This document shows positions 964-25,648 of a stretch of DNA of 64,000 nucleotides, one piece after another. Each line of letters opens with the position of its first letter. Position 1 is the stretch's first letter. The DNA is taken from NCBI GenBank assembly GCA_030673875.2, contig JAUTCT020000132.1:29080-93079 (forward strand). The letters run 5' to 3'. The notes beneath the pieces are model-generated. The model worked only from the letters and a program-made list of their open reading frames with translations. It searched no databases and was not told the origin of the DNA. The position numbers and the translations under genes are program-made. This DNA comes from Verrucomicrobiota bacterium JB025. GTDB lineage: Bacteria; Verrucomicrobiota; Verrucomicrobiia; Verrucomicrobiales; Akkermansiaceae.

Positions 964-6016
<5,053 letters not shown>

Positions 6017-6028
6017 GCTGATAATCGG

Positions 6029-9064: not shown

Positions 9065-9095
9065 TTCTTTTAGTTAATAGATAATTTCAGCGGTG

Positions 9096-11516
9096 TCACT
9101 GGTCGGACAGCAATCCATCAAAACGATTCTCCGACGCGTAGATCTGATAGCCCTTGATTTTCCCCGGATTCGGGCCGTTGCGCGGCAGATAGCGCAGTGA
9201 CCGGAACTCCTTCACCTTGCCGAGATCGAGCACCACCTGGTGCGGATGCCCCGTCGATTTCCGGGCGCCCTTGTATTGGGTGTGCCAGAAGGTCACCGGC
9301 TGGTTGTCGATGATGTTGCTCGCCGATGATGGCTCGGCGACAATCTCCTCGCTGTCGGCGTAGATCACCTGCCAGGAATCGCGGTCGAGCCAACTGTCCG
9401 CAGCATCCACCAAATGGATTTCGGCAATCGTGGCATGCGGGTCCCCTCCGTATGAATCGATGGACTGCAGGCAAAGGTAGCGCGCCTTGATGGTTTTTCC
9501 GAAGTCCACGAACTGGGCGTCATCGCCGTCCTTGAAGGTTCCCTCGGCGATGAGTTGATCGCCGTTCAAGCGAACCTCTTCGCCCGGCTTGCGGTTGTAG
9601 CTCAGGTTTTCATCCACCTTGAGGCCGTAGATGAACTCGGTGACGCCCCGCATGGAATGGTGCCCGGTCGGCTCGATGTCCATCACCACCACCTCATTGA
9701 GCCCCTGCTTCATCCAGCACCCCGGAAGATACAGCGTGTATTGCGGGCCGATGTCCCAGAACCGCCCGAGGTTGATGCCGTTCACCCAGACCATCCCCTT
9801 GCCCCAGCCGGTCATGTCCAGCAGCGTGTCGCCCACTTCGTCGACCGAAAAACCGCCGCGGAAAAACACCGGCAGGGACGATGGTTTCGCCGGTGTGCCG
9901 GAAAACTCGAGCGATGCGATATCCCCGGATTCCAGCGGAAAGGTGCGGATCTCCCAGCCCGTCACCGGTTTCCCGGCGAAGCTCACCTCGCCCAGTCCCT
10001 TGCGGTCCTTCATCAACTCGCGCGCGTAGTTCAGGTGCCCCATGTTCTCCACTAACACCTCAAGCTTCACCTTCCCGGCGGGAACCTGCAGCTTCACGGC
10101 ACTCTGCTTCAAGCGCCGGTCGAGCGTCGCCACCCGCTGGTCGTTCACGATGACGATCGCGCGGTCCTTCAGCGCACTGAATGCCAGCGGAAACTCCCCC
10201 GCCGCGGGGACATCGAGCGTCGTCGCGTAAAGCGCCAGCCCCTGGTTCAGGTCGAGCGCCTCCATGTGCGGCGCGTCTTCGGACACGAACGGCTTGCCGA
10301 ACAACTGCTCGAAAGACGCGGTCTGGTCCAACTCGAACTCCGCCACCTCCACGCGCTTGATCTGCGCCGGCGGCTCGGGCAGTGCGGTGTCTTCCGGCAG
10401 GAACTTCCGGATCGTATCCCGGAACGTGAAGAACTTCTCGGTGATGCGCCCGGTTTCATCCATCGGCGAGTCGTAGTCGTAGCTCGTCGTGTCCGCGCTG
10501 TATTGCCCGGACGACCAGTTGGCGCCCGAGTTGAAGCCAAAATTGGTCCCGCCATGCAGCATGTAGACGTTGAACGACACCTCGTTTTCCAGCATCCACT
10601 CGATCTGCTCGATGAATGGCGCCAACGCCTTGGTGTGGTGTTTCGCCCCCCAGTGGTCGAACCAGCCGACCCAGTATTCGCCGCACATTCTGGGCATGCC
10701 CGGATATTCCTCGTCGAAGAACGCGAAGGCGCTGTCCGCCCCGCCGCCGAAGTTCATCGTCGTGAACACGCCGTCGATCTGCGCGGTGCCGATGGTCTTC
10801 TTCTTCGGCCAGTCACAGCGGATGAACATGGTCTCGAACCCGGCAGCCACCAACTGGTCGTAGATCGCCCTGTTATAGGCCATGTCGTCCTCGTTTCCGG
10901 GACGGCCGAACTGCCCGTATTCATTCTCCACCTGCACCTGGATGATCGGGCCACCCCGGGAAACCTGCAGCTCCTTGAGTTGTTCGCCGACCGCCATCAT
11001 GTAGCGGGCGGTCGCCTCGAGAAACTTCGGATCATTCGTCCGCACCTGCATCTCCGGGTCCTTCAACAACCAGGCCGGCATGCCGCCGAAATCCCACTCG
11101 GAACAGACATACGGGCCGGGCCGCACGATCAGCCACATCCCCTCTTCCTGGCAGGTCCGGGCGAATGCCGCGATGTCGAGGTTGCCGGAAAAGTCGAACT
11201 CTCCCGGCTTCTTCTCGTGGGCGTTCCAGAACACATAGGTGCCGATGCAGTTGAACCCCATCGCCTTCGCCTTGCGGATCCGGTCACGCCAGTAGGCACG
11301 CGGCACACGCGGATAGTGAATGGACCCCGAGATGATCACCGCCGGTTTCCCGTCGAAGGTGAAACTCCCGTCCGACGCCCCGAAAACCGGTTGCTCCTCA
11401 CCCGGAGGATTCGGTTTGGGCGGCATCGGCAGCGTTTTACTCCATGCCATGCCAGTCAGCACGGCGGCGGCGAGAACCCCGAAACAACGGGCTCCGGCGT
11501 ATGGGTTGTTTCTCAT
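9096..11516 (-). CDS. GH35 beta-galactosidase with C-terminal F5/8-type (CBM32-like) domains
   Basis: SGSIHYPR, YVFWNAHE, RPGPYVCSEW, QVENEYG (acid/base), CGEYWVGWFDHWG (nucleophile), YMLHGGTNFG, TSYDYDSP and WGKGMVWVNG. Signal peptide present. Confidence 0.93.
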   Translation of the reverse strand: MRNNPYAGARCFGVLAAAVLTGMAWSKTLPMPPKPNPPGEEQPVFGASDGSFTFDGKPAVIISGSIHYPRVPRAYWRDRIRKAKAMGFNCIGTYVFWNAHEKKPGEFDFSGNLDIAAFARTCQEEGMWLIVRPGPYVCSEWDFGGMPAWLLKDPEMQVRTNDPKFLEATARYMMAVGEQLKELQVSRGGPIIQVQVENEYGQFGRPGNEDDMAYNRAIYDQLVAAGFETMFIRCDWPKKKTIGTAQIDGVFTTMNFGGGADSAFAFFDEEYPGMPRMCGEYWVGWFDHWGAKHHTKALAPFIEQIEWMLENEVSFNVYMLHGGTNFGFNSGANWSSGQYSADTTSYDYDSPMDETGRITEKFFTFRDTIRKFLPEDTALPEPPAQIKRVEVAEFELDQTASFEQLFGKPFVSEDAPHMEALDLNQGLALYATTLDVPAAGEFPLAFSALKDRAIVIVNDQRVATLDRRLKQSAVKLQVPAGKVKLEVLVENMGHLNYARELMKDRKGLGEVSFAGKPVTGWEIRTFPLESGDIASLEFSGTPAKPSSLPVFFRGGFSVDEVGDTLLDMTGWGKGMVWVNGINLGRFWDIGPQYTLYLPGCWMKQGLNEVVVMDIEPTGHHSMRGVTEFIYGLKVDENLSYNRKPGEEVRLNGDQLIAEGTFKDGDDAQFVDFGKTIKARYLCLQSIDSYGGDPHATIAEIHLVDAADSWLDRDSWQVIYADSEEIVAEPSSASNIIDNQPVTFWHTQYKGARKSTGHPHQVVLDLGKVKEFRSLRYLPRNGPNPGKIKGYQIYASENRFDGLLSDQ

Positions 11517-11553
11517 GGCGTCTGTCTGTCAGGAAGTACCCCGGGACCGACGA

Positions 11554-12981
11554 TCACTCGCCTTGGAACTGCTCTTGTCCGAAGGTGAAGATCTCCGACG
11601 GAGTCCGGGCTCCATCCATCATCGCACACAGGCGGTCGACGGTTTCCGGATGTTGGCCGGCGACGTCGTTCCGCTCACCCGGGTCCACCGAAAGATCAAA
11701 CAACATGACCGGCGCATTCGGCTTCTTGAGCACGTTGTAGCGCACCGCCTTCCACTTGCCGGAGCGCACGGCGATGCGTCCGCCACGTTCGTGAAACTCC
11801 CAGTAGAGATACTTGTGCTTCGGTTGCTCGCCCTTGCCCAGTAGCTCGGGCACGATCGAATGACCGTCGGTATCCGCGGGGGCCTTCACGCCCGCCAGCT
11901 CGGCGAAGGTCGGCACCATGTCCCAGAATGCAGAGATCAGGTGTGACTCGGAACCCGCCGCAATCCTGCCGGGCCAGTAGGCGACCATCGGCACGTGCAC
12001 GCCCCCTTCATACAGGTCCCTCTTGTGCCCGCGGAACGGGCCGTTGCTGTCGAAAAACTCCGGATCGGCGCCACCTTCCTGGTGGGCTCCGTTGTCCGAG
12101 GTGAAAATAATCAGCGTGTTGTCGGCGATGCCCAACTCCTCCACCTTGGCGACGATTTCACCCACCTGGTCGTCAAGCAGCGTGATCATCGCGGCGAATG
12201 CCGTCCGCGGTTCCTTCTGCGACTGATAGCGGCCCTGGCGCAGCTCCTTGCCTTTGTCCAGGCCCTTGAACGGTTTCGGTTCGTCGAACTTGCCGCGGAA
12301 TTTCTCCATGTATTCCTTCGGCGCGGCCAACTCGGCATGGGGAATGATCGAGGCGACGTATGCGAAGAACGGCCTGTCCTTGTTGTCCTCGAGGAACTTC
12401 AGCGTCCGCTCGTGAATCAGCGCGGGACCGTAGTCCCCCTTGGCCGTCCCCTTGTTGCCCTCGAGGATCACCTTCTTCTCATTGTCCCACAGGTGGAACG
12501 GATAGTAATGGTGCCCGAGACGCTGGCAGTTGTAGCCGTAAAACACGTCGAACCCCTGCTTCACCGGATCTCCTTCCGAGCCGGGATAGCCGAGCCCCCA
12601 TTTGCCGAACGCCCCGCTCACGTAGCCGGCCGGCTTGAGGATTTCCGGCAGCAACACCTCTTCCGCGGGAATCGGCTGCTGGCCTTCAGGAAGGATCTCC
12701 TTGTTGCCGCGGATGAACGTGTGCCCGGTGTGCTTGCCAGTCAGAAGCGCAGACCGCGAGGGCGCGCAAACCGTGCTGCCGGAGTAGTGCTGGGTGAAAA
12801 ACATCCCCTTGTCCTTCAGCGCGTCGATGTGCGGCGTCTGGAACTTCTCCTGACCGAGGAAGCTCAGGTCGCCATAGCCCAGATCATCTGCTAGAATATA
12901 GATGATGTTGGGCGGTCGTTTTTCCTCTGCGGTCAGGGTCGCCAGCAGGCTGAGGCAAATTGCGAGTGTTAGTCGGATCAT
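11554..12981 (-). CDS. Cys-type S1 arylsulfatase
   Basis: PNIIYILADDLGYGD, CAPSRSALLTGKH, TSDNG, YEGG and LYWEF. Signal peptide present. Confidence 0.94.
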   Translation of the reverse strand: MIRLTLAICLSLLATLTAEEKRPPNIIYILADDLGYGDLSFLGQEKFQTPHIDALKDKGMFFTQHYSGSTVCAPSRSALLTGKHTGHTFIRGNKEILPEGQQPIPAEEVLLPEILKPAGYVSGAFGKWGLGYPGSEGDPVKQGFDVFYGYNCQRLGHHYYPFHLWDNEKKVILEGNKGTAKGDYGPALIHERTLKFLEDNKDRPFFAYVASIIPHAELAAPKEYMEKFRGKFDEPKPFKGLDKGKELRQGRYQSQKEPRTAFAAMITLLDDQVGEIVAKVEELGIADNTLIIFTSDNGAHQEGGADPEFFDSNGPFRGHKRDLYEGGVHVPMVAYWPGRIAAGSESHLISAFWDMVPTFAELAGVKAPADTDGHSIVPELLGKGEQPKHKYLYWEFHERGGRIAVRSGKWKAVRYNVLKKPNAPVMLFDLSVDPGERNDVAGQHPETVDRLCAMMDGARTPSEIFTFGQEQFQGE

Positions 12982-12993
12982 GATATCGTAGGG

Positions 12994-14259
12994 TTATGGG
13001 CGAAATTTAAAGGAGAACACACTGATGGTTCCCGGTTCCAGGGTTGCATTGAAACTCTTCCGGCTGTCCGCGGCGAAGCTGGCCGACACACCTTCCGGCG
13101 GGTGCACTTCCGACCACTGGGTGCCGGTCACCGGGCCAATGATCATGCCGCTTTCTAGGCGGAAGTTCAGGTCTTTCCAAGTTTTGTCAGGATCAAAATT
13201 GAGCGCGTAAACCGTCATGCGGTCGCCCTGGAGAAAGGTCCGGGTGTGGAGTTCCTCGATGTCCAGGGTTTTCGGGCCATCCGGATCCACCGTCCTGACG
13301 GGCCGGGCATTGACCAGCGGCACCGTGGCGGCGTGCATCAGGTGGTCGCGGCGGCGTTTCTTCGGGTTGAGGTCCCACCACATCAATCCGTTCATGCCGT
13401 TGTCGGTGCAGTCCCACAGCGCGATGAACGAGCAGATCGCGCTTTTCATGGAATGGGTGCCGGAGCCCTTTTCCCCATGCTCGTCCCAGTGGAGCTCCGA
13501 ATGCCATTTCTCGCGATCACCGGCGTAGGCGAGGTCCGACTTCAGCTTATCCAGCGGACGGTGCCGGGTGTAGTAGTGGCCGCCGAAGACATCCATGGTG
13601 TCGCTCTTCAACGCGACGAACTTCTTCATCCACTGGTCGCGTCCCATCGCATAGTCCTCATGGCCGATGATCTTCGGCATTTTCAGCCCCCGCGCAGCCG
13701 TCAGCTTCCGCAGTTCGAGCACGATGTCGCGGTGCTTGCGCGGCATGATGTTGCCCTCGTTGAAGCGCCGCTCGTTATCAACCCCCAGCACATCCACCTG
13801 CAAGCCGTTGCGCTTCATGTATTCCAGATAGTCGATGAGCAGGATCGCATACTGCTTCGGAATCACGCCGCCGCCGTCCTTCGTCCACTCCGGAAACGAG
13901 TCCTTGTTGTCGAGCTTCTTGCTCGCGAAGATCAGCGTGTCCGGGCGGATTTTCTTCGCCAGCTTCATCGCCTTGGTTTCCGCGTCGTAGAACTTCTCGA
14001 CCACCACGCCCGGCGCCGGATGCGCCGGCTTCTCGCCGGTTCCGTAGATCGATGTCCGCAGGCCGTTGAAATCGTAATCCACCAGCAGGGTCTTCGCCCA
14101 ATCACCCCTGACGAACTTCCGCGGGGCTCCCGGGGATTTCAGGTCGTAGAACATCCGGTTGATCTGCGTCCCCAGGTCCCGGGGGAAAATCACCACCTCG
14201 TCCGCCGCATCCGCGAATGCGCATGACGCCAACAGAACAACCAGACATTTCATTTTCAT
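12994..14259 (-). CDS. Secreted putative clan GH-A glycoside hydrolase, GH30-like architecture
   Basis: Signal peptide, candidate acid/base GVDNE, GGHYY, candidate nucleophile WHSELHW and a beta-sandwich-like C-terminus (VYALN...LEPGTISVFSF). Start uncertain (14253-14271). Confidence 0.6.
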   Translation of the reverse strand: MKMKCLVVLLASCAFADAADEVVIFPRDLGTQINRMFYDLKSPGAPRKFVRGDWAKTLLVDYDFNGLRTSIYGTGEKPAHPAPGVVVEKFYDAETKAMKLAKKIRPDTLIFASKKLDNKDSFPEWTKDGGGVIPKQYAILLIDYLEYMKRNGLQVDVLGVDNERRFNEGNIMPRKHRDIVLELRKLTAARGLKMPKIIGHEDYAMGRDQWMKKFVALKSDTMDVFGGHYYTRHRPLDKLKSDLAYAGDREKWHSELHWDEHGEKGSGTHSMKSAICSFIALWDCTDNGMNGLMWWDLNPKKRRRDHLMHAATVPLVNARPVRTVDPDGPKTLDIEELHTRTFLQGDRMTVYALNFDPDKTWKDLNFRLESGMIIGPVTGTQWSEVHPPEGVSASFAADSRKSFNATLEPGTISVFSFKFRP

Positions 14260-14267
14260 ACAGTGCA

Positions 14268-16946
14268 TCAATTGGTTCCCGGTTCTAATTCATCATTCGA
14301 CCCCGCCAATGGTCCCCCATGGGCTCGGGTTTCTGCCGCTCTACTACCCGGGTTTCCCTGCGCATCTGTCGGGATTTCCGCGGAATTCCGATCATCAGCC
14401 CGCGATTCCCGGTCCACCACCCGGTAGCGTCCGAAAAACACCCCGCCGGGTTTCCCGATCACCAGCGGAAGCGCGGCGTTCGAGTCCAGCGACACCCGGC
14501 CGGACGTCCCGCCCAGCAGGTCATCCAGCGCCAAGCGGGTGCCCGCCTTGAGGAATCGCAGCGGCATCGATGCCTCCGCCTCCTCATTGAGCCGCTCCCG
14601 GAACACCAGCAGATACCCGCTGCCCGAATCGGGATCCACCCATTGGAAACCAGCCCACGAGGCATTGTCCGGTTCACTGCCGACCGGAAAGACATAACTG
14701 CCGAACAAATCGTCGCGCACCGCACGGTATGACTTGAGCACCTCCTTGACCTCCGCCCTCTGCCCGGGCTCAAGCAGGCGGGTCGTCTGGAAAAACACCG
14801 GCAGACCGGGAAGCCCCAGCGCCACCGCATAGGTGTCCGAATACAGATGGGCGTCCGAAACCTTTTGATTCACCATGCGGAAATTCGACACCGGCAGCTC
14901 GAACTTCTGCGGGTTCAGGTAGCGCGCCAGCTCCCACACCTCGCGCAGCATCAGCCACGGCCGGGGCACCACACTCTCCGGCTTCATCGGCTTGCGGTTG
15001 GCCAACCATACGGACCCGCACTCGCGCGCCCAGAAATAACCGAACCGCGCCGCGTTTTCCGTCACGTCCCAGTTCACCCTCGCCTTGTGGCCGGAATGGG
15101 CCACCAGCGACCTGCCCTTGGCGAGATACTGCTCGACGCTGGAAAAATCCCGCAGACTCGCAAAGTCGAGCTTGAAGGTGGTGAACCCCGCACCATCGTA
15201 CGCCGACACCAGATCCTCCAGCGGCGCGCGCGCCGCAAACCACACGCCCAGATCAAGGTCGAGCTTGTCCGCCCGCTCGACCACTCGGCTCCACCCCTGT
15301 GGATACCAATCCGCGCGCGGCTGCCACTCGCGCTCCTCACGGCTCCGGTCCTTCTTCCGGCCATTCTGCCAGCCGTCATCGATCTGAATCGCATCCAGCC
15401 CGAGATCCGCGACGGAATCCATCTCGGCAAGCACCTCATCCTCGCTCGCCCGCGCCATCGATTCCGGCTGGTTGATTCCACTGCCCCAGGTGTTCGCCTT
15501 CAGGTAGGCGTCCCGCCCCGGCACCATCGGATAGCGCGTCCGGTCGAATCGCTTCAACGCGAGCTCGCGCAGGTCATCGGACGCCTCCGGATAGAGCACC
15601 ATCCAGGTCGCCCAGCACCATCGCCAGTCGGCGGCCAGCTGGCTTTCCGGCAGCCCCCGTCCGGTCACCGCCACGCCGCCCGCACCGGCCTCGAACCCGC
15701 CGGTATCCACACCCGCCTGGTTCACGCACTTGTGCGACTCCTTCACCAGCGCGACCCCGCCCCGCCCGTTCTCCAGGCAGAGGATGTTCGCCCAATCGAC
15801 CGATCCGGGCCCGACCACCTCATCCCGCACGAGGTGGGTGTCCGGCCGATGACGGTTCTGGGTATCGTTGAAGTAACCGATCGCCCGCAGTTCCGGCGCG
15901 CGCACCGGCAGGAAATCCGTTCGTTTTCCGCTCTTTCTGCCCGCCGGTTTCTGTTCGCTGCCACCGTCCAGATAGGCCAGCAACGAGCACCCCTCCGGCG
16001 CCATCCCTTCCAGTTCCCGCTTCCTCCCGGCATCGATCTCCAGCCGCCCGGCCCGCCCGGATCCATAGAGCCACGCTTCGCACAAAACCGCCGACGGCCC
16101 CATGAGGCGATCTACGATAATCGTCGTACTCCCGTCCAGATTGACCTGCCGCGGGATCTCGACCACCAGCGACTCCGCGCGGCGATGGTCCTCTTTCCAC
16201 CCCGGAAGCACCTGCGGCTTCACCAGCAGCGATCGCGCCTCACCATCGATGCTCGTCGCGACCACCCGCTGGCGCCGTCCACCGTTGCCGTAGTCCCACC
16301 ATGAAAACCCCAAATGATAGGTCCGCGATGGATCGAGCCCCTCGAACCGCAGCGTGATTCCCTTCTGCCCCTGGAGCGACCGCGCATGCCACACCGGAGC
16401 CACATCAAGCGCCGCACGCACCATGACCGGCCTCCCGGAAACCACGGAAATCCCCGGCCCGCCAACCTCACCGCCGGCCGTCCCACCGGCGGCGTCCTCC
16501 TGTTTCATCCAGAGCTGGGTCCGCATCCCCTCACTCCCGGGGTAGACCCACGTCTCATGCCGGACAACCCTGCCGCTGGCCGGATATCGAACGTCCGCCC
16601 GCACCCGCAGGTGCTCGCTGGTGAAGCCGTCGTCGTCGGATCGCTCCGCGGTCAACGAGACCAACTCCGCCGCCGGAAGCTCACTGCCCTCACCTTCCTC
16701 CCAATCGCACCCCGCGGGATCGCCATTCACCCATTCCCGTCCCGTCCTCTGGTCGACCACCGAAACCGTCGCCAGCCCGTGACCGGTCCAAAGCCAGCTG
16801 CGTTCCACGGTCCCGGTGCTCGCGGTGATCCGGTTTCCGGAGGAATGCACACGCGCCGGACCCAGCGACCCTGATATTTCGGGGACCGCGCCAAAACCGG
16901 CGCCCACCGAAACAACAATCATCAGTGCAATGGCTTGGATATTCAT
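14268..16946 (-). CDS. Secreted putative clan GH-D (GH36/GH27-like) glycoside hydrolase
   Basis: Signal peptide, KANTWGS, IQIDDGWQ, LGVWF, FKLDF (candidate nucleophile Asp) and a GH36-like C-terminal WAGFQ...GYLLVFRE. Alternative start at 16967. Confidence 0.62.
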   Translation of the reverse strand: MNIQAIALMIVVSVGAGFGAVPEISGSLGPARVHSSGNRITASTGTVERSWLWTGHGLATVSVVDQRTGREWVNGDPAGCDWEEGEGSELPAAELVSLTAERSDDDGFTSEHLRVRADVRYPASGRVVRHETWVYPGSEGMRTQLWMKQEDAAGGTAGGEVGGPGISVVSGRPVMVRAALDVAPVWHARSLQGQKGITLRFEGLDPSRTYHLGFSWWDYGNGGRRQRVVATSIDGEARSLLVKPQVLPGWKEDHRRAESLVVEIPRQVNLDGSTTIIVDRLMGPSAVLCEAWLYGSGRAGRLEIDAGRKRELEGMAPEGCSLLAYLDGGSEQKPAGRKSGKRTDFLPVRAPELRAIGYFNDTQNRHRPDTHLVRDEVVGPGSVDWANILCLENGRGGVALVKESHKCVNQAGVDTGGFEAGAGGVAVTGRGLPESQLAADWRWCWATWMVLYPEASDDLRELALKRFDRTRYPMVPGRDAYLKANTWGSGINQPESMARASEDEVLAEMDSVADLGLDAIQIDDGWQNGRKKDRSREEREWQPRADWYPQGWSRVVERADKLDLDLGVWFAARAPLEDLVSAYDGAGFTTFKLDFASLRDFSSVEQYLAKGRSLVAHSGHKARVNWDVTENAARFGYFWARECGSVWLANRKPMKPESVVPRPWLMLREVWELARYLNPQKFELPVSNFRMVNQKVSDAHLYSDTYAVALGLPGLPVFFQTTRLLEPGQRAEVKEVLKSYRAVRDDLFGSYVFPVGSEPDNASWAGFQWVDPDSGSGYLLVFRERLNEEAEASMPLRFLKAGTRLALDDLLGGTSGRVSLDSNAALPLVIGKPGGVFFGRYRVVDRESRADDRNSAEIPTDAQGNPGSRAAETRAHGGPLAGSNDELEPGTN

Positions 16947-17180
16947 CGATTCAAGTAGCACCCCCATTCACCCGTCCCCCCGACAATGAAGGAGGACTGC
17001 GTGGCCAGCTGCATTCAATACCCACTAGAACACCTGCTCCGGCCGAATCTTTACAGATCCGGAGACCTCCCCGGCCGGCGCAGCATTCCCCAGACCCGAA
17101 TCAGCCGCGGATTGAACCAAATGACGAGGGGCCGCCCCATCACGAGGCGACCCCAAAACTCGGGCCAATCCAACGAGCCC

Positions 17181-19460
17181 TCAGGGCCGCGTCACATTCA
17201 GGCGCACGAAGAGCTTGCCATCGACCGCATTGCTCAGCGGCACGGTGACATCCACCGCATCCGGATCACTCGAATCCACCGCGATGTCCGTCCAGCTCGC
17301 CAGATCCGTCGACCACTGCACGGTCTGCGTCGTGGTGGTTTTGGAATCCGCCGTGCGGGTGTAGGAGAACGTCAGGTTCGTCTCATCCATCGCAAGCGTC
17401 GGCAGAATCGCCGGGTCCGAAACCAGCGGATCGCCGCCGAGCACGAACTCAAGACCGTTGGCGATCCCGTCGCCATCCGCGTCCTCATCAAAGCCGGCGG
17501 CCGCGCCGGGATCAATGCTGGTGATGTTGGTGGCGGCCCAGGAAACATACGCATCCCCGGTCGAGGTGTAGTCCAGCAGCAGGTCCAGACCGTCCACCCG
17601 CACGCTCCAGGTGCCGGTGCCGGCGGTGAAGCCGGACGCGTCCACCGTGAAGTCGGCGTCGGTGGCGGACATCGTGCCATCCACGGTGCCGATGATGAAA
17701 CTGTTGCTCGCTTCCGAAAAGTTGGTGATCGCCGAATCATCAATCACCACCGTGACCGACGGCTGCGCGGCGGAAACGGTGAAGTCACCGGTCACATACA
17801 ACTGCGACCAGTCGATACCCTCGGCACCCGTCCAATCCCCGAATGACACCGTGTATTCGGTCGTGCTGCCGACTTCGGCCGTGAACGAATCGACCATCAT
17901 TAACTGGGACATCCCGAGCTTCAGCGTGGCACCGTCCGCGACGGTGACAGCACCGCAAGTTTCATTTGCGACGAGCAACAGCGTGCCGGCCTCGACCGTG
18001 ATGTCTCCCAATGCGTCGGTGGTGTAGCCGGTCAGCGCCCGATCCAGTTCCTGGGTGCCCTCCCCTTGTTTGACGATGGAGAGAGGCTGATCACCGACGA
18101 CGTTTCCGTAGTAGCTGTAGGTTTCTCCTGCAGCAACATTGATGGTCAAGGTCGATGGCCCCTCGCGGCTGTCGATCTGGCGGGTGTTGTTGGAGCTGGT
18201 ATAGAGCCCCGCAATCGTCTGATCGAATCCCATCGGCTCGAATTCGGCAGTCCCCTTGCCGCCGATGTTCAATACCGTCGTGGCCGGAAGCGCATTGTCG
18301 ATCCCGATCTGGAGCCTCCCCTGATAGATGTTGGTTTCTCCGGAGTAGTCCGAGGTATCACCTGTCAGAATCAGGGTATTTCCATCCGCCCCCGATTCGC
18401 GCCCGATCTGCAAGACCCCGGTGCCAGTGATGGTGCCGCCATAGGTATTGGGAGCACCGGTGCTGACGATGATACCGCCATTGTCGAGCGTGATACCGCG
18501 GTTGGGATGGATCGTCACGTCCTGCATCTTCAGTTCACCGCTATTGCGCAACGTAATGTAATCCGACACGAACGTTGCTGGAACCGCGCCAAATGCGCCG
18601 TCACCGATCCCGTTCGGAACCTGAACCTCCGTACGGTTGTTCTCCGCGTCCACCACAATGCCGCCGGAGAACGTATTGCCGGAGTTCTTGAGCTGCACGA
18701 ATTTGCCACCCAAGTTGGTGGCCCGTAACGTTCCTTCTCCGCTGATGACCCCGGTCAGGTACATACTTCTGTTCCAGCGGTTGGCGAAGGAAACCGTCCC
18801 GGAACCCAGTTCCCAGTTGTTGGCGTATGCCATGTCAGCATTCCGCTCGTGAACGTAGGTGCAGTCGCCCGACAGCTTGACGGTGTCAAACGTGCCAATC
18901 GAGCCGGGATTGCCGCGCACGACGGTCGGATCAAGCACATCAAGAGTCGCACCGGTCGCCGTCCAGTTGGCCCCACCGGGTTTCTCCCCCGTATCAAATA
19001 CACCGCCGCCGAAAATCGTCAGCGTGTCGCCCGGGGAAATCGACAGCGGGGTGTCATTGTTCAGGTCGTTGACAAACTCGATCTCGCGCTCACCCGTGTC
19101 CCACTCGGCGCCACCAGCGGCGATGGTGATCAGCCCCAGGTTGTCGGTCGCGGACTTGAAGGTCACTTTATCCGTCCCCAGATCAAGCCACAAGTCGCCG
19201 ACGGTGACACCGCCATCAGCGATCGTCACCGTGTAGTTTGCGCCGAAATCAGGGAAAAACGCCTCTTGGGATCCCGTGTTGTCCCAAACGACATTGCTGC
19301 CACTGTCGTCCCAGTTTGCCGTGGTAAGATCCCAGTCTCCGTTGCCGGCTGTGTCGGCCGGATTCCAGGTGAGTTGGCCGTAAGAAGCCGATGAAAGGGC
19401 CAGGAGCAACGGTGCCACTCGACCCATTTGTCCGAAAATTCGGGTACAATGGTTTTTCAT
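17181..19460 (-). CDS. Autotransporter-associated beta-strand repeat (PATR) surface protein without a beta-barrel
   Basis: Signal peptide, Gly/Thr/Asn-rich repeats (NTFSGGIVV, DYSGETNIYQGRLQIG, VKQGEGTQEL) and C-terminal DADGDGIANGLEFVLGGDP...DGKLFVRLNVTRP. Confidence 0.85.
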   Translation of the reverse strand: MKNHCTRIFGQMGRVAPLLLALSSASYGQLTWNPADTAGNGDWDLTTANWDDSGSNVVWDNTGSQEAFFPDFGANYTVTIADGGVTVGDLWLDLGTDKVTFKSATDNLGLITIAAGGAEWDTGEREIEFVNDLNNDTPLSISPGDTLTIFGGGVFDTGEKPGGANWTATGATLDVLDPTVVRGNPGSIGTFDTVKLSGDCTYVHERNADMAYANNWELGSGTVSFANRWNRSMYLTGVISGEGTLRATNLGGKFVQLKNSGNTFSGGIVVDAENNRTEVQVPNGIGDGAFGAVPATFVSDYITLRNSGELKMQDVTIHPNRGITLDNGGIIVSTGAPNTYGGTITGTGVLQIGRESGADGNTLILTGDTSDYSGETNIYQGRLQIGIDNALPATTVLNIGGKGTAEFEPMGFDQTIAGLYTSSNNTRQIDSREGPSTLTINVAAGETYSYYGNVVGDQPLSIVKQGEGTQELDRALTGYTTDALGDITVEAGTLLLVANETCGAVTVADGATLKLGMSQLMMVDSFTAEVGSTTEYTVSFGDWTGAEGIDWSQLYVTGDFTVSAAQPSVTVVIDDSAITNFSEASNSFIIGTVDGTMSATDADFTVDASGFTAGTGTWSVRVDGLDLLLDYTSTGDAYVSWAATNITSIDPGAAAGFDEDADGDGIANGLEFVLGGDPLVSDPAILPTLAMDETNLTFSYTRTADSKTTTTQTVQWSTDLASWTDIAVDSSDPDAVDVTVPLSNAVDGKLFVRLNVTRP

Positions 19461-19479: not shown

Positions 19480-19495
19480 AGGTTTTGGTGGGTTT
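19480..19495. repeat. Left arm of a perfect 16-bp inverted repeat (AGGTTTTGGTGGGTTT)
   Basis: Exact reverse complement of 19846-19861. Confidence 0.9.
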
Positions 19496-19655: not shown

Positions 19656-19845
19656 ACCACGCGGTTCGCCCCGCTGAATGCGCCAGCCACGGGCACCGCA
19701 ATGCCCCCGCCCCCCCCGCTCCCGGCGAAACGAAAAAAAAATCGCATTTCCGAGTATAGATCCGCTCTGCCCGGGTGTTCTCTATCATGAAGGGGAATGA
19801 ATGACCGGTGCCTTTGGCCCTCGTCGCTTCGATTGTTTCATTCCC

Positions 19846-19861
19846 AAACCCACCAAAACCT
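19846..19861. repeat. Right arm of the 16-bp inverted repeat (AAACCCACCAAAACCT)
   Basis: Exact reverse complement of 19480-19495. Confidence 0.9.
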
Positions 19862-19992
19862 TACCAACCCAAACAAACCCACTGACGCTCCGGCACATTC
19901 GCCGGTGCCCGCGGCTCCGAGTACCCAACTCACCCGCCACCAACCCATCCAAAATCCATCATCATTCCAAAATCCTACATAAATCCAACATC

Positions 19993-22716
19993 ATGAAAAA
20001 CCGCCGACACTCGTTCCCGCCCTCCCTGCGCACCCTTTCCTCACTCGCCATTCTGGCACTCACCGGAGCAGGCGCTCAAGCCGCCGACCTCACCTGGATC
20101 GGCCCCGCCGACCCCGACACCGGAGTCTGGGACGTCGGCACCACGGCAAACTGGAACGACGGAGCCTCCGACACCACATGGACCGACGGTGACAATGCAA
20201 TCTTCACCGCCGGAAGCTACAACATCGACATCGCCGACGGCGGCGTCTTCATCAAGGACCTCACTTTCGGCGGAGGCGGCGAATTGCTTCTCAAATCCGT
20301 CACCGACAACGAAGGCATCATCGTCGTCGATTCCGGCGGTGGCACTTGGGACACCGGTGGTGGAACCATCTCGCTCTATAACCTCAACGACACGTTCGAC
20401 ACTCCGCTCGAAGTCGAAAGCGGTGACACCCTCACCATCGTCGGCGGCGGATCCTTCGACACCGGAGAAAACCCCACGGATGCCAACTGGATGGTCGAAG
20501 GGGCCATCCTCGACATCGCATCCGCAACAACAGTGCGGGGAAATTCCGGCAGCGTCGGACAGTTCGCCACCGTCAAAATGGCCGATGGCAGCACCTACCT
20601 GCACCGTCGCAACATGGATCAGACCTACGCGAACGATTGGGAATTGGGCGCGGGCACCATCACATTCGACAATTCCTACGCGAGGAGTATCACGCTGAGC
20701 GGTGTCATTTCCGGACCCGGAACCCTCAAGGCCGAGTCCATGGCCAATAAAATCCTCACTCTGTCAAACACCGGCAACACCTTCTCCGGCGGACTGACCG
20801 TCGGCGCCAACACAACGGTCCTGATCACCGACGTCGCCCAAATGGGCGATGCGGCCGGGGACCTCACCCTCAGCGATGGAGGCATCGTCAAATTGCAGGG
20901 AGGCATTGACTTGGGAAGCACCCGCGAAATCGTCCTGACCGGCACCGGCGGCGCCATCGTCAACGCCGGCGTCAACTTCTTCTCGGGAAACATCACCGGT
21001 TCCGGCGATTTCCAAGTCGGTGATGACATCCACTATGGCAATACCAACGTCATCACGCTGTCCGGCACGGCTGATTACACCGGCGCCACCAATATTCGCG
21101 TGGGAAGCGTGAAACTCGGTGCGGATGAAGCGCTCAATAGCGGGGTCATGACCATCGGCGGGGCGAACACCGCCCGTCTCGTCCTCGATGGACATACCCA
21201 GACCATTGGCGGCCTGCTCAACGTCGGGAGCAAGACCAAGCAAATCGTCAACCTCAATGCCACCACCACAGACAGCACTCCCGGCACACTCATTTTCGAT
21301 GTCGCGGAGGGTGCTGATTATTCCGCCGGATCGGCTACCGGAGTCGTCGCTACGGACGACCGCGGCAACTTCAGCATCATCAAAAACGGACTGGGCAGCC
21401 AGACCCTCGGCAACGTGACCATCAGCGGCGACGCCACCGTCAACGAAGGAACCCTCACGATCGGTAATTCCAACGGAACCTGTACCGTCCTCGGCCAGGC
21501 CACCGTGACCGGCGGAACCCTCGCCATCGCAGAGGAAATGATCGGCCTCACCTCGATCGATGTCACCGGTGGTGGCACCTTGCGGATCAGCGCCGACAAC
21601 TACCTCGGCGACCTCGCCGCTCCGATCACCCTCGACGGCGGCACACTGAATGTCCAAATGGAAAACAGCACCGGCGGCAGCTTCGAGATCGACTCCAGCC
21701 GCCCGATCATCCTCGGTGCCGACGGAGGAACCATTCAGACCACCACCCCGAGCGGTGCCTGGTACGTCGCCTACAACGGCGAGATCTCCGGAACCGGCTC
21801 ACTCGTGAAGTCCGCGGGCCAAACCCTCGAACTCGGTGGCGAAAACACCTACACCGGCGCGACCACCATCAGCGGAGGAACCCTCCGCCTGACCGGCAGC
21901 CTCGCATCCGATGTCACCGTGCAGGGTGGCAGCACCTTCCTCGCCGGTGACTCCGCAACCGGAACCGGAACAGGAACCCTGCCCTCGCTCACGCTGGAAG
22001 CCGGTGCCAGAATGGTCAGCGTCCTCGACACCGATTTGGAAGACGCCGGCATGGCGATCGTTTCCGGCGCGGTGACGATCGACCCGACCGCGACTCTCGC
22101 AGTGGCTGACCGCGGCACCGGCGAGATCATCGCCATCGGCACCAAGTTCACCCTCATCGACTACGCCGGCGGCTCCCTCACCGGCACCTTCGACGGACTG
22201 GCCGACGGCTCCACCATCACCGTCGGATCCAACCTGTTCGTCATCGACTACAACGACGACGAAACCCCGGACACCGTCACCCTCACCTCCGCCGGCAGTG
22301 CGAATCCCTACACCCTCTGGGTGGATGAATTCACCAACCTGACCGACTCGAGCTTCCCGCTCGACTTCGACAACGGCGGACTCTCCACCGGAGTTGAATA
22401 CGTCGTCGGCGGGGATCCGACCCTCGGATCGGACGACGCCAAACTGGCGCCCTCCGCCGTGAACACCGGAACCACGCTCGAGTTCACCTTCCGCCGCACC
22501 GACCTCGCAAACGAAGATGCCAACACCACGATCACCGTGGAATACGGCTCCGACCTGCTGGGCTGGACCACCGCGGCCGATGGAGTCGACGGCATCGTCA
22601 TCACCGAAACCGACAACTTCTACGAAGAAGGCGTCGACCAGGTCATCGTCAGCCTGCCTGCCGCACTTGCGACCGACGGCAAAATCTTCGCACGCCTGAA
22701 CGTCGAACAACCCTAA
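19993..22716 (+). CDS. PATR beta-strand repeat surface protein, paralog of 17181-19460
   Basis: Signal peptide MKNRRHSF...GAQA, repeats NTFSGGLTV, DYTGATNIRVGSVKLG and LVKSAGQTLELGGENTYTGATTISGGTLRL, and C-terminal GVEYVVGGDP...DGKIFARLNVEQP. Confidence 0.88.
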   Translation: MKNRRHSFPPSLRTLSSLAILALTGAGAQAADLTWIGPADPDTGVWDVGTTANWNDGASDTTWTDGDNAIFTAGSYNIDIADGGVFIKDLTFGGGGELLLKSVTDNEGIIVVDSGGGTWDTGGGTISLYNLNDTFDTPLEVESGDTLTIVGGGSFDTGENPTDANWMVEGAILDIASATTVRGNSGSVGQFATVKMADGSTYLHRRNMDQTYANDWELGAGTITFDNSYARSITLSGVISGPGTLKAESMANKILTLSNTGNTFSGGLTVGANTTVLITDVAQMGDAAGDLTLSDGGIVKLQGGIDLGSTREIVLTGTGGAIVNAGVNFFSGNITGSGDFQVGDDIHYGNTNVITLSGTADYTGATNIRVGSVKLGADEALNSGVMTIGGANTARLVLDGHTQTIGGLLNVGSKTKQIVNLNATTTDSTPGTLIFDVAEGADYSAGSATGVVATDDRGNFSIIKNGLGSQTLGNVTISGDATVNEGTLTIGNSNGTCTVLGQATVTGGTLAIAEEMIGLTSIDVTGGGTLRISADNYLGDLAAPITLDGGTLNVQMENSTGGSFEIDSSRPIILGADGGTIQTTTPSGAWYVAYNGEISGTGSLVKSAGQTLELGGENTYTGATTISGGTLRLTGSLASDVTVQGGSTFLAGDSATGTGTGTLPSLTLEAGARMVSVLDTDLEDAGMAIVSGAVTIDPTATLAVADRGTGEIIAIGTKFTLIDYAGGSLTGTFDGLADGSTITVGSNLFVIDYNDDETPDTVTLTSAGSANPYTLWVDEFTNLTDSSFPLDFDNGGLSTGVEYVVGGDPTLGSDDAKLAPSAVNTGTTLEFTFRRTDLANEDANTTITVEYGSDLLGWTTAADGVDGIVITETDNFYEEGVDQVIVSLPAALATDGKIFARLNVEQP

Positions 22717-22849: not shown

Positions 22850-24886
22850 TCAGCGGCCGTCGTCGGTGGTTTCCACCACCTCCACCAAGCCGCGCAGCAC
22901 CGCCAGCTGCCCGCGATCAAACTGCCCCGGTTCGATCACCAACCGCCTCAGGCCGACCATTCCGTTAAGCGGTTCGAGATCCACCACCGGAGTGCCGCGG
23001 ATGTCCAGATTCTCCAGGTCGAGGCCGTCCAGGTTCCAGAGGTCATCGATGTCCGATCCGCTGATGTCGAGCGACCGCAGCGGCAGCAGGCGCAGCAGGC
23101 TGCGCACGGGAACCAGCTTCTCGGTCCGCCGCGCGCCTTTCCGATAGAGCGATCGGAGCCCCTTTCCCGAAACCCGCAGGTGGCCGTTCTTGCGATCATA
23201 GGCAAACTCGCGCGACCGCCACCCCCGATTGCTCAGCTCCAACATCACCCGCAGAATCCTCGCGGTATCCCGCAGCGACTTGCGCTTCAGACTGTCATAG
23301 ATGATCATTTTCTCCATCAGCGGATAGCGGCTCTTGCTGTCCAGCGAGAGGGTTTTCAGCAGACGAATGAACTCGTCCACCGGCAGCAATCCGTCCTCGG
23401 CAACCAACGGCGCAAACTCGGGAATCAAATCCCGGATCGACTTCTGACTCCCCTGCCGGATCGCGTAATACCGCTCCGACTCCTCAAACCGCTGGGTCAT
23501 GAACAACACGTGGGCCATGATCGTCCAGCGCCGGTCCGTCGGCGGCGGATTCGACTCAAAGCCCCGCTGCAGCGCCGCCATCGCATTGTCGATGACCGGC
23601 AGACTGATGCTTTCCTTCACCATCAGGAAATCAATGAGAAACAACACGTTCGCCTCCGGAATGTCCTCGCGACTCTCAAACACGGCCATCGCAAACTCCC
23701 GCTCCTGCCGCTGCCGCTCGAGCGCCTCCTCCGCCCGGGCTCGCGCGGCATCCGCACCCACCAGCGCCTCTTCCGTCCGCGCCAGCGCCTCGGTCGTCCT
23801 GTGGTGGCTCGCACTCAATTTCTGCGTGAACCAAACCGCGGCCGTCAGCGCGAACGCGATGAATACCAGCGAAATCACGCAGAGCTGGCGGTTCCGCCGG
23901 AAAAACAACCGAACCTCGCGCACCACCCCGGCGTTCTCCACCTCCACGCTGTAGCCCATCAGGTGCCGCTTCACATCCTCACGCAGCGCCTGGACATTCG
24001 GATACCGGTCGGCCGGATCCTCGGCACAGGCTTTTTCCACAATCGCCGCAACAGCCGGTGAGGCATCACTCAACTTGTGCCGCCGGCTCGGACGGTGCAG
24101 CGTGGAGAGTTCAAATAACAAACAACCCAGCGAATAAATGTCGGTCGCCGGAGTTTTCGTCGCCCGCGGTGTCGATAGCTCCGGCGCCATGTAGCCGGGC
24201 GTCCCCTTGATCGACGCCTCCAGCTGGTCGCCATACAAATCCGGATCCAGCAAGGCCACGGAATCCTGTTCCTCGTCCCCGTCCCGCTCCACCTCGCCCA
24301 TCCCCCAGTCGCATACCTGCACTTCCCCGAAGGTCCCGACCTGGATGTTATCCGGCTTGAGATCGAGGTGCAGCACCCGCCGCGAATGCGCGTAGGACAT
24401 CGCATCACACACCCGCAGCAGGATCGACAGCCGCGCCTCGTAGGGAAAGCGCTCCTCCGCCTCGCCCTTCCGCAGGGCTGAGAGGATCTTGCGCAGCGAC
24501 TGCCCGCGCTTGAACTCCATGGTGAAAAACGGCCGCATCCGCTCGTCGATGCCCATGTCAAACAGGTTGATGATGTTCGGATGCTCGAGACGCGCGGTGA
24601 TGTGGGCCTCGCGCAGGAACGAATCGTAACGCTCGATCGGCACCCCCTCCCTCGGCCTGGCCAGTGCGACAAATCGCTCGGTGTGCTCATCATACACCTT
24701 GAACACCTCCTTCATCCCGCCCCTGCCGATCAGCGTCTCCTCGCCGTAGCGTTTCTCGACGCGGCGCAACGCATGATAGAGCGGGCACAACGCCTGCTCC
24801 TCGTCCAGAGACAGGTCCGCCAGCTGCCGCTCGGCCTCCTCATAGAGCGCCCGGTACGAGGTGAAAACCGCATCGTCATCCTTCAT
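22850..24886 (-). CDS. Membrane Hanks-type Ser/Thr kinase with atypical (WNK-like) Lys placement and C-terminal leucine-rich repeats
   Basis: GRGGMK, VALAR, EAHITARLEHPNII, HLDLKPDNI, DWG, GTPGYMAPE and DIYSLG. One TM helix (LCVISLVFIAFALTAAVWF), a coiled coil, then LRR (LRSLDISGSDIDDL...LENLDIRGTPVVDL). Confidence 0.9.
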   Translation of the reverse strand: MKDDDAVFTSYRALYEEAERQLADLSLDEEQALCPLYHALRRVEKRYGEETLIGRGGMKEVFKVYDEHTERFVALARPREGVPIERYDSFLREAHITARLEHPNIINLFDMGIDERMRPFFTMEFKRGQSLRKILSALRKGEAEERFPYEARLSILLRVCDAMSYAHSRRVLHLDLKPDNIQVGTFGEVQVCDWGMGEVERDGDEEQDSVALLDPDLYGDQLEASIKGTPGYMAPELSTPRATKTPATDIYSLGCLLFELSTLHRPSRRHKLSDASPAVAAIVEKACAEDPADRYPNVQALREDVKRHLMGYSVEVENAGVVREVRLFFRRNRQLCVISLVFIAFALTAAVWFTQKLSASHHRTTEALARTEEALVGADAARARAEEALERQRQEREFAMAVFESREDIPEANVLFLIDFLMVKESISLPVIDNAMAALQRGFESNPPPTDRRWTIMAHVLFMTQRFEESERYYAIRQGSQKSIRDLIPEFAPLVAEDGLLPVDEFIRLLKTLSLDSKSRYPLMEKMIIYDSLKRKSLRDTARILRVMLELSNRGWRSREFAYDRKNGHLRVSGKGLRSLYRKGARRTEKLVPVRSLLRLLPLRSLDISGSDIDDLWNLDGLDLENLDIRGTPVVDLEPLNGMVGLRRLVIEPGQFDRGQLAVLRGLVEVVETTDDGR

Positions 24887-25524
24887 TTACCCGCCTCTCC
24901 GCCCTCCAGGTCGTGTTTCAACAGCTGGATCTCCCGCAGCAGCATCGTCTTCACCCGGTGCTTCAAGATATACACCGTGTTGACCTTGATCCCCAGCTCC
25001 CCGGCGATCCCCTCCACGCTCTCGCCCGCCAGCGATCGGGAAAACACCTCCATCGCATTGCCGGAAAACTTCACCCGCACCCGGTCCATCGCCAGCCGCA
25101 CCACATACTGCTGCCACTCCTCCTCCACCCGCGCCTCGATCTCCGGACTGTCCGTGAGCTCTAGCACCCCGCCCGTCCGCTCGTCATCCAGACTCGGGCC
25201 GGACGGCTGGCGCTTCCTCGCCCTCACGATGTTGAGCGCCACATTGCGGATCAACTTGGCAAACCAGGTGCGGAATTTCGCCCGCGCCGGGTCGCGCTCA
25301 TAGCGGCTCAGCCCATTCCACAGCTTCACCGCCACCTGCTGGCGCGCATCGTCCAGATCCGCCCCGGAAAACCCCATCGCGCCGAGCACCTTGGAAACAA
25401 ACGGATCGTAATACCCCAGCAATTCCTCCCACGCCGGGTGGCTGTTGCCGCCACGCGCCCTCTCCAACAAGCTCACCCTCGTCCTGAGGGCATCGATGCT
25501 GGAAAGTTGGGACGGGTCATCCAT
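24883..25524 (-). CDS. ECF sigma-70 factor (PVC kinase-associated type)
   Basis: Region 2 (WEELLGYY...DLDDARQQV...FRTWFAKLIRN) and region 4 HTH (IAGELGIKVNTVYILKHRV). Stop overlaps the kinase start (ATGA). Confidence 0.9.
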   Translation of the reverse strand: MDDPSQLSSIDALRTRVSLLERARGGNSHPAWEELLGYYDPFVSKVLGAMGFSGADLDDARQQVAVKLWNGLSRYERDPARAKFRTWFAKLIRNVALNIVRARKRQPSGPSLDDERTGGVLELTDSPEIEARVEEEWQQYVVRLAMDRVRVKFSGNAMEVFSRSLAGESVEGIAGELGIKVNTVYILKHRVKTMLLREIQLLKHDLEGGEAGK

Positions 25525-25557
25525 GGCGAGAGACTATTGCCGGCCGCGTCGCCATGC

Positions 25558-25613
25558 CAATTCTCAATTCCCAATTCCCAATTCCCAATTCCCGATTCCC
25601 GATTCCCAACTCC
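25558..25613 (+). repeat. Heptamer tandem repeat, 8 units, consensus CAATTCC
   Basis: CAATTCT, 4x CAATTCC, 2x CGATTCC, CAACTCC read directly from the sequence. Confidence 0.95.
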
Positions 25614-25648
25614 CGCCGCCACCCCGCACCGGACGCGGGAACCCGCAA

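Follow-up and report, generated by a model that had tools for sequence, protein, structure and literature searches.

A probable ECF62-type sigma factor encoded with a single-pass, non-RD receptor kinase, and a predicted promoter motif, in a Verrucomicrobiota bacterium

Results

An ECF sigma factor and a receptor kinase gene form a conserved pair

We analysed a 64,000-nucleotide stretch of the genome of Verrucomicrobiota bacterium JB025 (hereafter the window), in which the genes for an extracytoplasmic function (ECF) sigma factor and a Hanks-type Ser/Thr receptor kinase overlap on the reverse strand, beside two paralogous PATR genes and a cluster of glycoside hydrolase (GH) and sulfatase genes. 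Taken as a whole, from gene pair through to promoters, the locus probably encodes an ECF62-type sigma factor that is co-translated with its cognate receptor kinase, would be activated by it upon an extracytoplasmic signal, and would then direct transcription from promoters of the form cTGTAwAGAt-N13-GKGTT. The initial annotation of this DNA had described the two genes as overlapping by ATGA with no anti-sigma gene. The sigma TGA stop and the kinase ATG start do share ATGA at 24883-24886 (coding-strand junction GGT AAA TGA AGG), and neither Pfam nor NCBIfam detects an anti-sigma domain of the RskA/zf-HC2 type in the kinase N-terminus or in the neighbouring open reading frames (ORFs), the neighbours being an AraC/cupin gene and a PATR gene. 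With no such match before its transmembrane (TM) helix, the kinase does not qualify as a class I anti-sigma factor.

The pairing extends well beyond this genome. We fetched 79 genomic loci of the kinase family, of which 66 are from bacteria of the Planctomycetes-Verrucomicrobia-Chlamydiae (PVC) group. A homologue of the window sigma factor adjoins the kinase gene in 60/66 PVC loci, spread over four phyla and four gene orders: the sigma gene is upstream and co-directional in 39 loci, downstream and convergent in 17, downstream and co-directional in 3, and upstream and divergent in 1; it is more than 4.5 kb away in one further locus and was not detected in the other 5. Such pairing is far beyond chance, bearing out the earlier view that sigma factor and receptor kinase form a module of the kinase-linked ECF type, and its persistence through rearrangements of gene order argues for direct functional coupling. 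Relatives of the kinase are conserved over the full length in Haloferula (67%) and also in Luteolibacter, Roseibacillus, Oceaniferula and Lentimonas (all Verrucomicrobiota), and beyond this phylum in Planctomycetota (Rhodopirellula and its relatives, ~41%), Lentisphaerota and Kiritimatiellota. Orthologues keep ATGA or near-abutting sigma-kinase junctions.

Two further sigma-kinase pairs, paralogous to that of the window and alike in kinase signature, lie in the JB025 genome itself, at C28:11709-14365 and C154:20051-22707, each beside giant secreted proteins; the C28 pair adjoins a PATR homologue in the convergent layout seen in the window. In the search of the JB025 genome, the C154 sigma frame contained one internal TGA. 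The orthologous pair was found in 0/15 same-genus genomes sampled and in 7/201 genomes of the order, and its representatives in other genera of the family are 60-77% identical despite this patchy presence, which suggests that the pair is an accessory, possibly transferred, module.

A Kiritimatiellales/Pontiella subclade (L027, L029, L032-L034, L036, L037, L039 and L041) has a fixed neighbourhood of its own, with the sigma gene convergent and downstream. As read from ORF translations, the surrounding genes encode a HAD-type phosphatase (immediately upstream), a multihaem cytochrome/tetratricopeptide repeat (TPR) protein, PtsI and dephospho-CoA kinase. None of them is a secreted glycan enzyme, indicating that the targets of the family are not uniform.

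The sigma factor is probably of ECF62 type and keeps its acidic patch

The sigma factor is of the ECF (group 4) type, ~200 aa with sigma2 and sigma4 domains only. It matches Sigma70_r2 (E 1.2e-9; 38.2 bits, cutoff 24) and the ECF superfamily model TIGR02937 (54.8 bits, cutoff 42.9); its score against Sigma70_r4_2, 18 bits, is under the 25.7 cutoff, and a helix-turn-helix is still recognised at residues 163-194. By BLASTP it is 43% identical over 195 residues, in a full-length alignment (E 2e-58), to WP_008685225.1 of Rhodopirellula sallentina, which is listed as the model of ECF62 (PMC8999054). This model sigma factor belongs to one of four pairs of the kinase family in the R. sallentina genome and adjoins a same-family kinase with the signature GGMK/VAxA/HLD/DWG. 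Another kinase-linked ECF sigma factor of R. sallentina is only 27% identical to the window protein. Because of the closer match to the listed model, we place the window sigma factor with ECF62 and not with ECF43, as a probable ECF62-type protein assigned through BLASTP to the group model. ECF62 is a group of the 2021 classification by Casas-Pastor et al. and reportedly goes back to the ECFSTK groups described by Jogler et al. in 2012.

The acidic patch of sigma2.2, D56-L-D58-D59, is kept in the segment GADLDD. Among 57 family sigma factors, positions 56, 58 and 59 are acidic in 86, 88 and 96%, and no conserved Ser/Thr occurs at the DAED-equivalent positions, so that what had first been remarked for the window protein, GADLDD with no Ser/Thr at the EcfP-type position, is true of the whole family. 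ECF43 sigma factors, by contrast, lack the acidic DAED of sigma2.2 (EcfP has STTA there) and gain the charge by phosphorylation, from a phospho-threonine (PMC8999054; PMC13147305). As the DLDD patch is kept family-wide, the charge switch of EcfP and EcfK does not apply here, and membership of ECF43 (EcfP/EcfK type) is excluded by the retained patch and by the lack of a Ser/Thr acceptor in its place. Kinase-linked groups other than ECF43 retain a DAED-like motif and may work differently (PMC8999054). Hydroxyl residues conserved in the family sigma factors are T15, S/T18, S/T86, S154, S164 and S/T183; T15 is invariant (55/55 aligned sigma factors) and lies with S/T18 in an N-terminal TRx[ST]LL.

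The kinase family has a relocated lysine and a non-RD active site

The kinase matches Pkinase with an E-value of 4.5e-35. It carries the glycine loop GRGGMK with K59 (codon 24710-24712), VALA in beta3, HLD (non-RD) and DWG, as well as an LLDPDLYG insert within the activation segment. Aligned to PknB, K59 falls in the glycine loop (GRGGMK versus GFGGMS) and A76 occupies the position of PknB K40. All 66 PVC kinases share K59, A76, E93, H173-L-D175, K177, N180, D193-W-G195 and P235-E236. The family signature reads GxGGxK with a relocated lysine, VALA, HLD and DWG: the HxDxKxxN loop, the DFG-type Asp, the alphaC Glu and the APE-type PE are present in 66/66, and the VAIK lysine of beta3 is missing, with Ala76 in its place, in 66/66. 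The canonical residues (GGMG, VAxK, HRD, DFG) are found in Myxococcota relatives that have no adjacent sigma gene, in the other Hanks kinases of the JB025 genome, and in another ECF-linked kinase of R. sallentina (L090). In the conserved 45-residue N-terminal stretch that precedes the kinase domain, P35 and L36 are invariant.

K59 of the glycine loop would stand in functionally for the beta3 lysine. As this relocated lysine and all the other catalytic residues are kept, the family is predicted to be catalytically complete, non-RD, with its lysine relocated as in the WNK kinases, which Kannan et al. called the only functional family of eukaryotic-type protein kinases without the beta3 lysine (PMC1821047). 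WNK kinases likewise carry the lysine where GxGxxG has its third glycine, with a small residue at the beta3 position (PMC1821047), yet they show no specific homology to the window kinase: no WNK occurs among its 60 best PDB sequence matches or 50 best fold matches, where PknB, PknA, Nek7 and PknS (structure 9eed) rank best. This indicates a parallel solution; WNK membership is ruled out, nothing being shared but the lysine position. Our literature search found no description of bacterial WNK-like kinases.

Loss of the canonical beta3 lysine is a common mark of pseudokinases, and one might read the protein as a pseudokinase, or as a kinase of unrelated substrates, with the neighbouring sigma gene incidental. 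We regard this as very improbable, given that the lysine is relocated rather than lost (K59 in 66/66, as in WNK; PMC1821047), that the other catalytic residues are invariant, and that the linkage to the sigma gene endures in four gene orders and four phyla.

A single TM helix joins the kinase domain to a helical and leucine-rich repeat sensor half

A full-length AlphaFold2 model of the kinase was built on 27 full-length relatives (mean pLDDT 79). In it, a single long helix (residues 333-405) includes the hydrophobic segment 335-353, and the basic sequence RLFFRRNRQ preceding this segment predicts that the kinase domain is inside the cell and the C-terminal half outside. The full-length fold search returned kinases only, and the sensor half was therefore modelled separately (pLDDT 87.9, pTM 0.87). 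Foldseek found no match among solved structures for the all-helical domain (residues 410-552). The C-terminal leucine-rich repeat (LRR) is modelled as beta/alpha repeats starting at residues ~605, 626, 648 and 669 with pLDDT >90, and its Foldseek matches are InlB, InlA, InlF and a Roco LRR (probability 1.0, E 6e-3, over ~80-100 columns). Pfam LRR_4 is sub-threshold in the window kinase (E 0.05) and is found in 6/27 family members. We also searched a sensor profile against 1.8 billion representative proteins. Generic LRR proteins with many repeats dominated the output, so that only single-stretch, full-length matches are informative; of the 150 best matches listed, those with the complete sensor domain have it only at the C-terminus of ~650-720-aa proteins or in fragments. 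The AlphaFold2 models and the internalin matches thus agree with the order kinase, TM, coiled coil, helical domain, LRR first proposed from the sequence, which is confirmed at the level of structure prediction.

A bipartite motif lies behind the kinase gene and at the head of the GH/sulfatase cluster

The intergenic regions of orthologous loci share a bipartite, promoter-like motif, cTGTAwAGAt-N13-GKGTT, found directly behind the kinase gene in 8/10 of these loci. Its strict form has 13 matches in the 2.94 Mb of fetched loci, and eight of the 13 are at most 200 nt past a kinase stop codon on the same strand (seven orthologues and one Opitutales locus); L001 carries a one-mismatch copy in the equivalent place. 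We scanned both strands of the 4.65-Mb JB025 genome with a weight matrix made from six sites, none of them from JB025. The top two matches of this matrix, at 25.5 bits each, are the window site at 17025-17057 (-) and C23:11791; the maximum in three shuffled genomes was 20.8-21.2 bits. The window site precedes a cluster of seven genes in the order GH36-like, GH30/59-like, sulfatase, GH35, GH2, sulfatase with an F5/8 domain, and GH2. The -35-like half alone is found behind the kinase gene in 18/65 family loci across phyla, versus 4.4 expected, which fits the near-invariant sigma4 helix of the family sigma factors. Elsewhere, the genes behind the motif encode large secreted carbohydrate-active or surface proteins, among them GHL15 and a SASA esterase with PMP repeats. 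The motif and its placement are what is new here.

The gene content behind the kinase is conserved as well. In the closest relatives, the genes after the kinase on its strand encode a He_PIG/TSP3 protein of ~960 aa, two paralogous proteins of ~390 aa without a Pfam match, and a PATR protein. The PATR gene is the first one after the kinase gene in Roseibacillus and a Pontiella. PATR homologues follow the orthologous sigma-kinase pair in at least seven other genomes, and the PATR proteins in L080, L081, L082, L083, L005, L006 and L015 all have the window PATR pair as their best match in the JB025 genome. The He_PIG module is directly behind the pair in Haloferula and related metagenome-assembled genomes and is on a separate contig, C23, in JB025; its 387-aa gene occurs in 5/201 genomes of the order, including 3/3 of those with a sigma factor at least 60% identical. 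No other regulator is conserved in the orthologous neighbourhoods. Synteny, motif and co-occurrence together make it likely, in silico, that the GH/sulfatase cluster, PATR(+) and the He_PIG module are targets of the sigma factor. Of the regulon proposed in the initial annotation, the PATR and glycan genes, the GH/sulfatase cluster is backed by the motif at its head and PATR(+) by a weaker copy and by PATR synteny, while PATR(-) has no site. The suggested synteny of such pairs with PATR and carbohydrate-active enzyme genes held for PATR and not clearly for sulfatases: these lie within 10 kb in 19/66 loci and directly beside the kinase in ~5-7, with no clear excess over the sulfatase densities assumed, rather than computed, for these genomes, and we dropped their adjacency as evidence.

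A reading in which the pair is a real signalling module but its regulon lies elsewhere than in the PATR and glycan genes, the motif belonging to another sigma factor or regulator and the neighbourhood reflecting secreted-gene density, would accommodate this lack of sulfatase excess, the motif's absence upstream of the sigma genes and the separate contig of the He_PIG module in JB025. It sits poorly with the clustering of strict matches just past kinase stop codons, with the fact that a matrix trained on outside sites ranks the head of the window cluster and the He_PIG module first, and with the lack of another conserved regulator, and we consider it quite unlikely.

Related sites and modules were also recorded. 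The three-gene He_PIG/TSP3_bac module, preceded by the motif, spans C23:6525-11791, L080:12231-17454 and L082:12148-17410. Three near-identical motif-like copies, CCGTAAAAATCCGT...TCCGTGGTTCA, with CCGT for CTGT, occur at C14:51063, C107:17784 and C166:4121 and could be either copies of a repeat or the promoter recognised by a paralogous sigma factor. At C118:20030, a related site lies in front of a gene for a protein that has, by sequence, a prepilin-type N-terminus (GFTLTELLVV).

Proposed mechanism

In the model that we favour, the kinase would be held in the membrane by its one TM helix, with the coiled-coil stalk, helical domain and LRR in the periplasm; the likeliest ligand of the LRR would be protein or glycan-associated. 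Upon the signal, the kinase would activate the sigma factor, most likely by phosphorylation, on the analogy of EcfP/PknT and EcfK/PknS. As the DAED position stays acidic, it cannot serve as the phospho-site, and the candidates are the conserved hydroxyl residues. Active sigma factor would then direct RNA polymerase to cTGTAwAGAt-N13-GKGTT promoters, which in JB025 would be those of the GH/sulfatase cluster, the He_PIG/TSP3 module and, more weakly, PATR(+). The sigma gene itself has an ordinary sigma-70-type promoter match and no ECF motif, from which we infer that control is most likely post-translational and not autoregulatory.

Several observations weigh against this model. With the sigma2.2 patch intact, the sole proven activation mechanism, that of EcfP and EcfK, is inapplicable as such, and no single phospho-acceptor stands out among the conserved hydroxyl residues of the sigma factor. 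T15, the invariant one, is by what we take to be its counterpart in E. coli RpoE (a comparison made without an alignment) a helix N-cap threonine, and is for that reason not a compelling candidate. The gene behind the window kinase is inverted, which breaks the ancestral layout. The PATR(+) site, scoring 15.2 bits with the matrix from other genomes, falls short of genome-wide significance, and the motif was not found in front of PATR(-). Nor does the motif occur in front of the sigma genes, in which it departs from most ECF promoters, and it is assigned to the window sigma factor by association only. A transcript search of the locus returned matches solely in algal and marine DNA metagenome contigs.

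Alternatively, the kinase domain might be mainly a membrane-bound, anti-sigma-like tether. The sigma factor, with its intact DLDD, would then be intrinsically competent for RNA polymerase, held by the kinase domain or by the 45-residue N-terminal segment, and freed by ligand-induced autophosphorylation or conformational change rather than by its own phosphorylation. The family-wide conservation of the acidic patch fits such a tether, as does the statement in a review that non-ECF43 groups may work differently (PMC8999054); a cytoplasmic N-terminal domain, one TM helix, a periplasmic sensor and co-translation mirror classical anti-sigma factors, and the invariant P35 and L36 before the kinase domain suggest a docking element. 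However, Pfam and NCBIfam detect no anti-sigma domain, and the catalytic residues, invariant in 66/66, argue for selected phosphotransfer, although they are compatible with autophosphorylation alone. We judge the tether unlikely and retain phosphorylation of the sigma factor as the working model.

Other features of the locus

Coordinates of the features are collected in Table 1. The AraC/cupin gene, 124 nt upstream of the sigma gene, is beside the pair in no orthologous locus, and this regulator is thus probably no part of the sigma-kinase module. Upstream of the sigma gene, no conserved ECF-type motif was found in 7-11 orthologous loci or in the window; an autoregulatory promoter was accordingly dropped, the window having only the sigma-70-like match. 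The heptamer array abutting the -35 element of this match is the only array of at least three such units in the 4.65-Mb genome. At this array the metagenome contig X4 is 23 nt shorter and the X1-X3 contigs break inside it. Sigma expression might vary here by slipped-strand events.

A perfect 16-bp inverted repeat (19480-19495 and 19846-19861) brackets 350 bp between the PATR genes and encloses the PATR(+) copy of the motif, such that inversion between the arms would pass the predicted promoter to the other PATR paralogue. The inverted form was not seen: the X1 and X3 contigs have the window orientation, and the X5 contigs, which break at both arms at very low depth, are uninformative. We set the invertible promoter aside, as the X1 and X3 contigs show the window orientation only; the arms may be remnants of an inverted gene duplication.

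Table 1. Positions of the sigma-kinase pair, its domains and neighbouring features in the 64,000-nucleotide window
Feature	Position	Strand	Basis or remark
Seven co-directional genes, predicted regulon driven from 17025-17057	964..16967	-	
Predicted ECF62-type promoter, TCTGTAAAGAT-N13-GTGTTC	17025..17057	-	86 nt upstream of the GH36-like cluster-head gene
PATR(-), paralogue of PATR(+) and divergent from it	17181..19460	-	tied to the pair by synteny
Weaker motif copy upstream of PATR(+), GAGTATAGAT-N13-GTGTTC	19751..19783	+	15.2 bits
PATR(+), convergent with the kinase gene, predicted target	19801..22716	+	likely true start ATG 19994
Hanks-type Ser/Thr receptor kinase, single-pass, 678 aa	22850..24886	-	Pkinase, AlphaFold2
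Internalin-type LRR, residues 560-672, period 21-22	22871..23209	-	AlphaFold2, Foldseek
Extracytoplasmic coiled-coil stalk (354-405) and all-helical domain (410-552)	23231..23827	-	AlphaFold2
TM segment, residues 335-353	23828..23884	-	topology inferred from sequence
Cytoplasmic kinase domain, ~residues 45-315	23942..24754	-	AlphaFold2, alignment
ECF sigma factor, ECF62-type, 213 aa	24883..25524	-	Sigma70_r2, TIGR02937, BLASTP
Sigma-70-like match TTGGCA-N16-AATAGT before the sigma gene	25533..25560	-	pattern match only
Heptamer array, 8.3 units (GGGAATT/GGGAATC, coding strand), adjoining the -35 element of the sigma-70-like match	25557..25614	.	
AraC/cupin gene, upstream of the sigma gene	25649-26530	-	same strand as the sigma gene

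Discussion

The sigma-kinase pair is probably a further ECF62-type module, of an already known kind, to which the promoter motif is an addition. It resembles ECF62 in the kinase-adjacent sigma gene, the lack of an anti-sigma gene and the PVC host, and differs in that the ECF62 model is from Planctomycetota (R. sallentina) and the window pair from Verrucomicrobiota. In our literature search we found no description of the active site of an ECF62 kinase, its sensor domain or a target promoter. The characterised systems of ECF43, EcfP/PknT of Vibrio parahaemolyticus and EcfK/PknS of Xanthomonas citri, likewise have no anti-sigma gene and an adjacent single-pass Hanks receptor kinase. PknS, too, has a periplasmic domain of repeat type, formed by TPRs in place of the helical and LRR sensor of the window kinase, and it is described as a canonical Hanks kinase, whereas the window family has the relocated lysine, the non-RD loop and DWG. 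To our knowledge, gene order has pointed to kinase-linked ECF sigma factors outside ECF43, ECF62 included, for over ten years, and none has been tested.

As a membrane sensor beside a glycan cluster, the pair is also reminiscent of the hybrid two-component systems (HTCS) and SusC-coupled ECF/anti-sigma regulators of polysaccharide utilisation loci (PULs) in Bacteroidota. The likeness is one of role only: the HTCS and FecR-type regulators are unrelated proteins with another mechanism, and the window pair has no link to SusC/D or TonB. We know of little on how the large sulfatase and GH sets of marine Verrucomicrobiota and other PVC bacteria are regulated.

A broader joint reading can be offered tentatively, and we think it somewhat doubtful. 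The kinases linked to ECF62 might be a PVC-wide class of WNK-like, non-RD receptor kinases, present in Verrucomicrobiota, Planctomycetota, Lentisphaerota and Kiritimatiellota, that control their sigma factors away from the DAED position, through phosphorylation elsewhere or phospho-regulated tethering, and act as a main transcriptional switch for regulons of secreted adhesins, sulfatases and GHs. If it is true, ECF62 pairs with their motif would be the functional counterpart of PUL regulators in bacteria without SusC/D.

The locus and its relatives give a testable circuit, made up of a sensor domain, a kinase of rare layout, a sigma factor, a predicted promoter and a small predicted regulon, and orthologues of the pair are present in cultured strains, among them Roseibacillus persicicus KCTC 12988 (L005) and Oceaniferula spumae NT6N (L003). 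If the model is true, it would reveal a second mechanism of sigma factor control by Hanks kinases and open a way into how algal-associated PVC bacteria control their genes in response to glycans.

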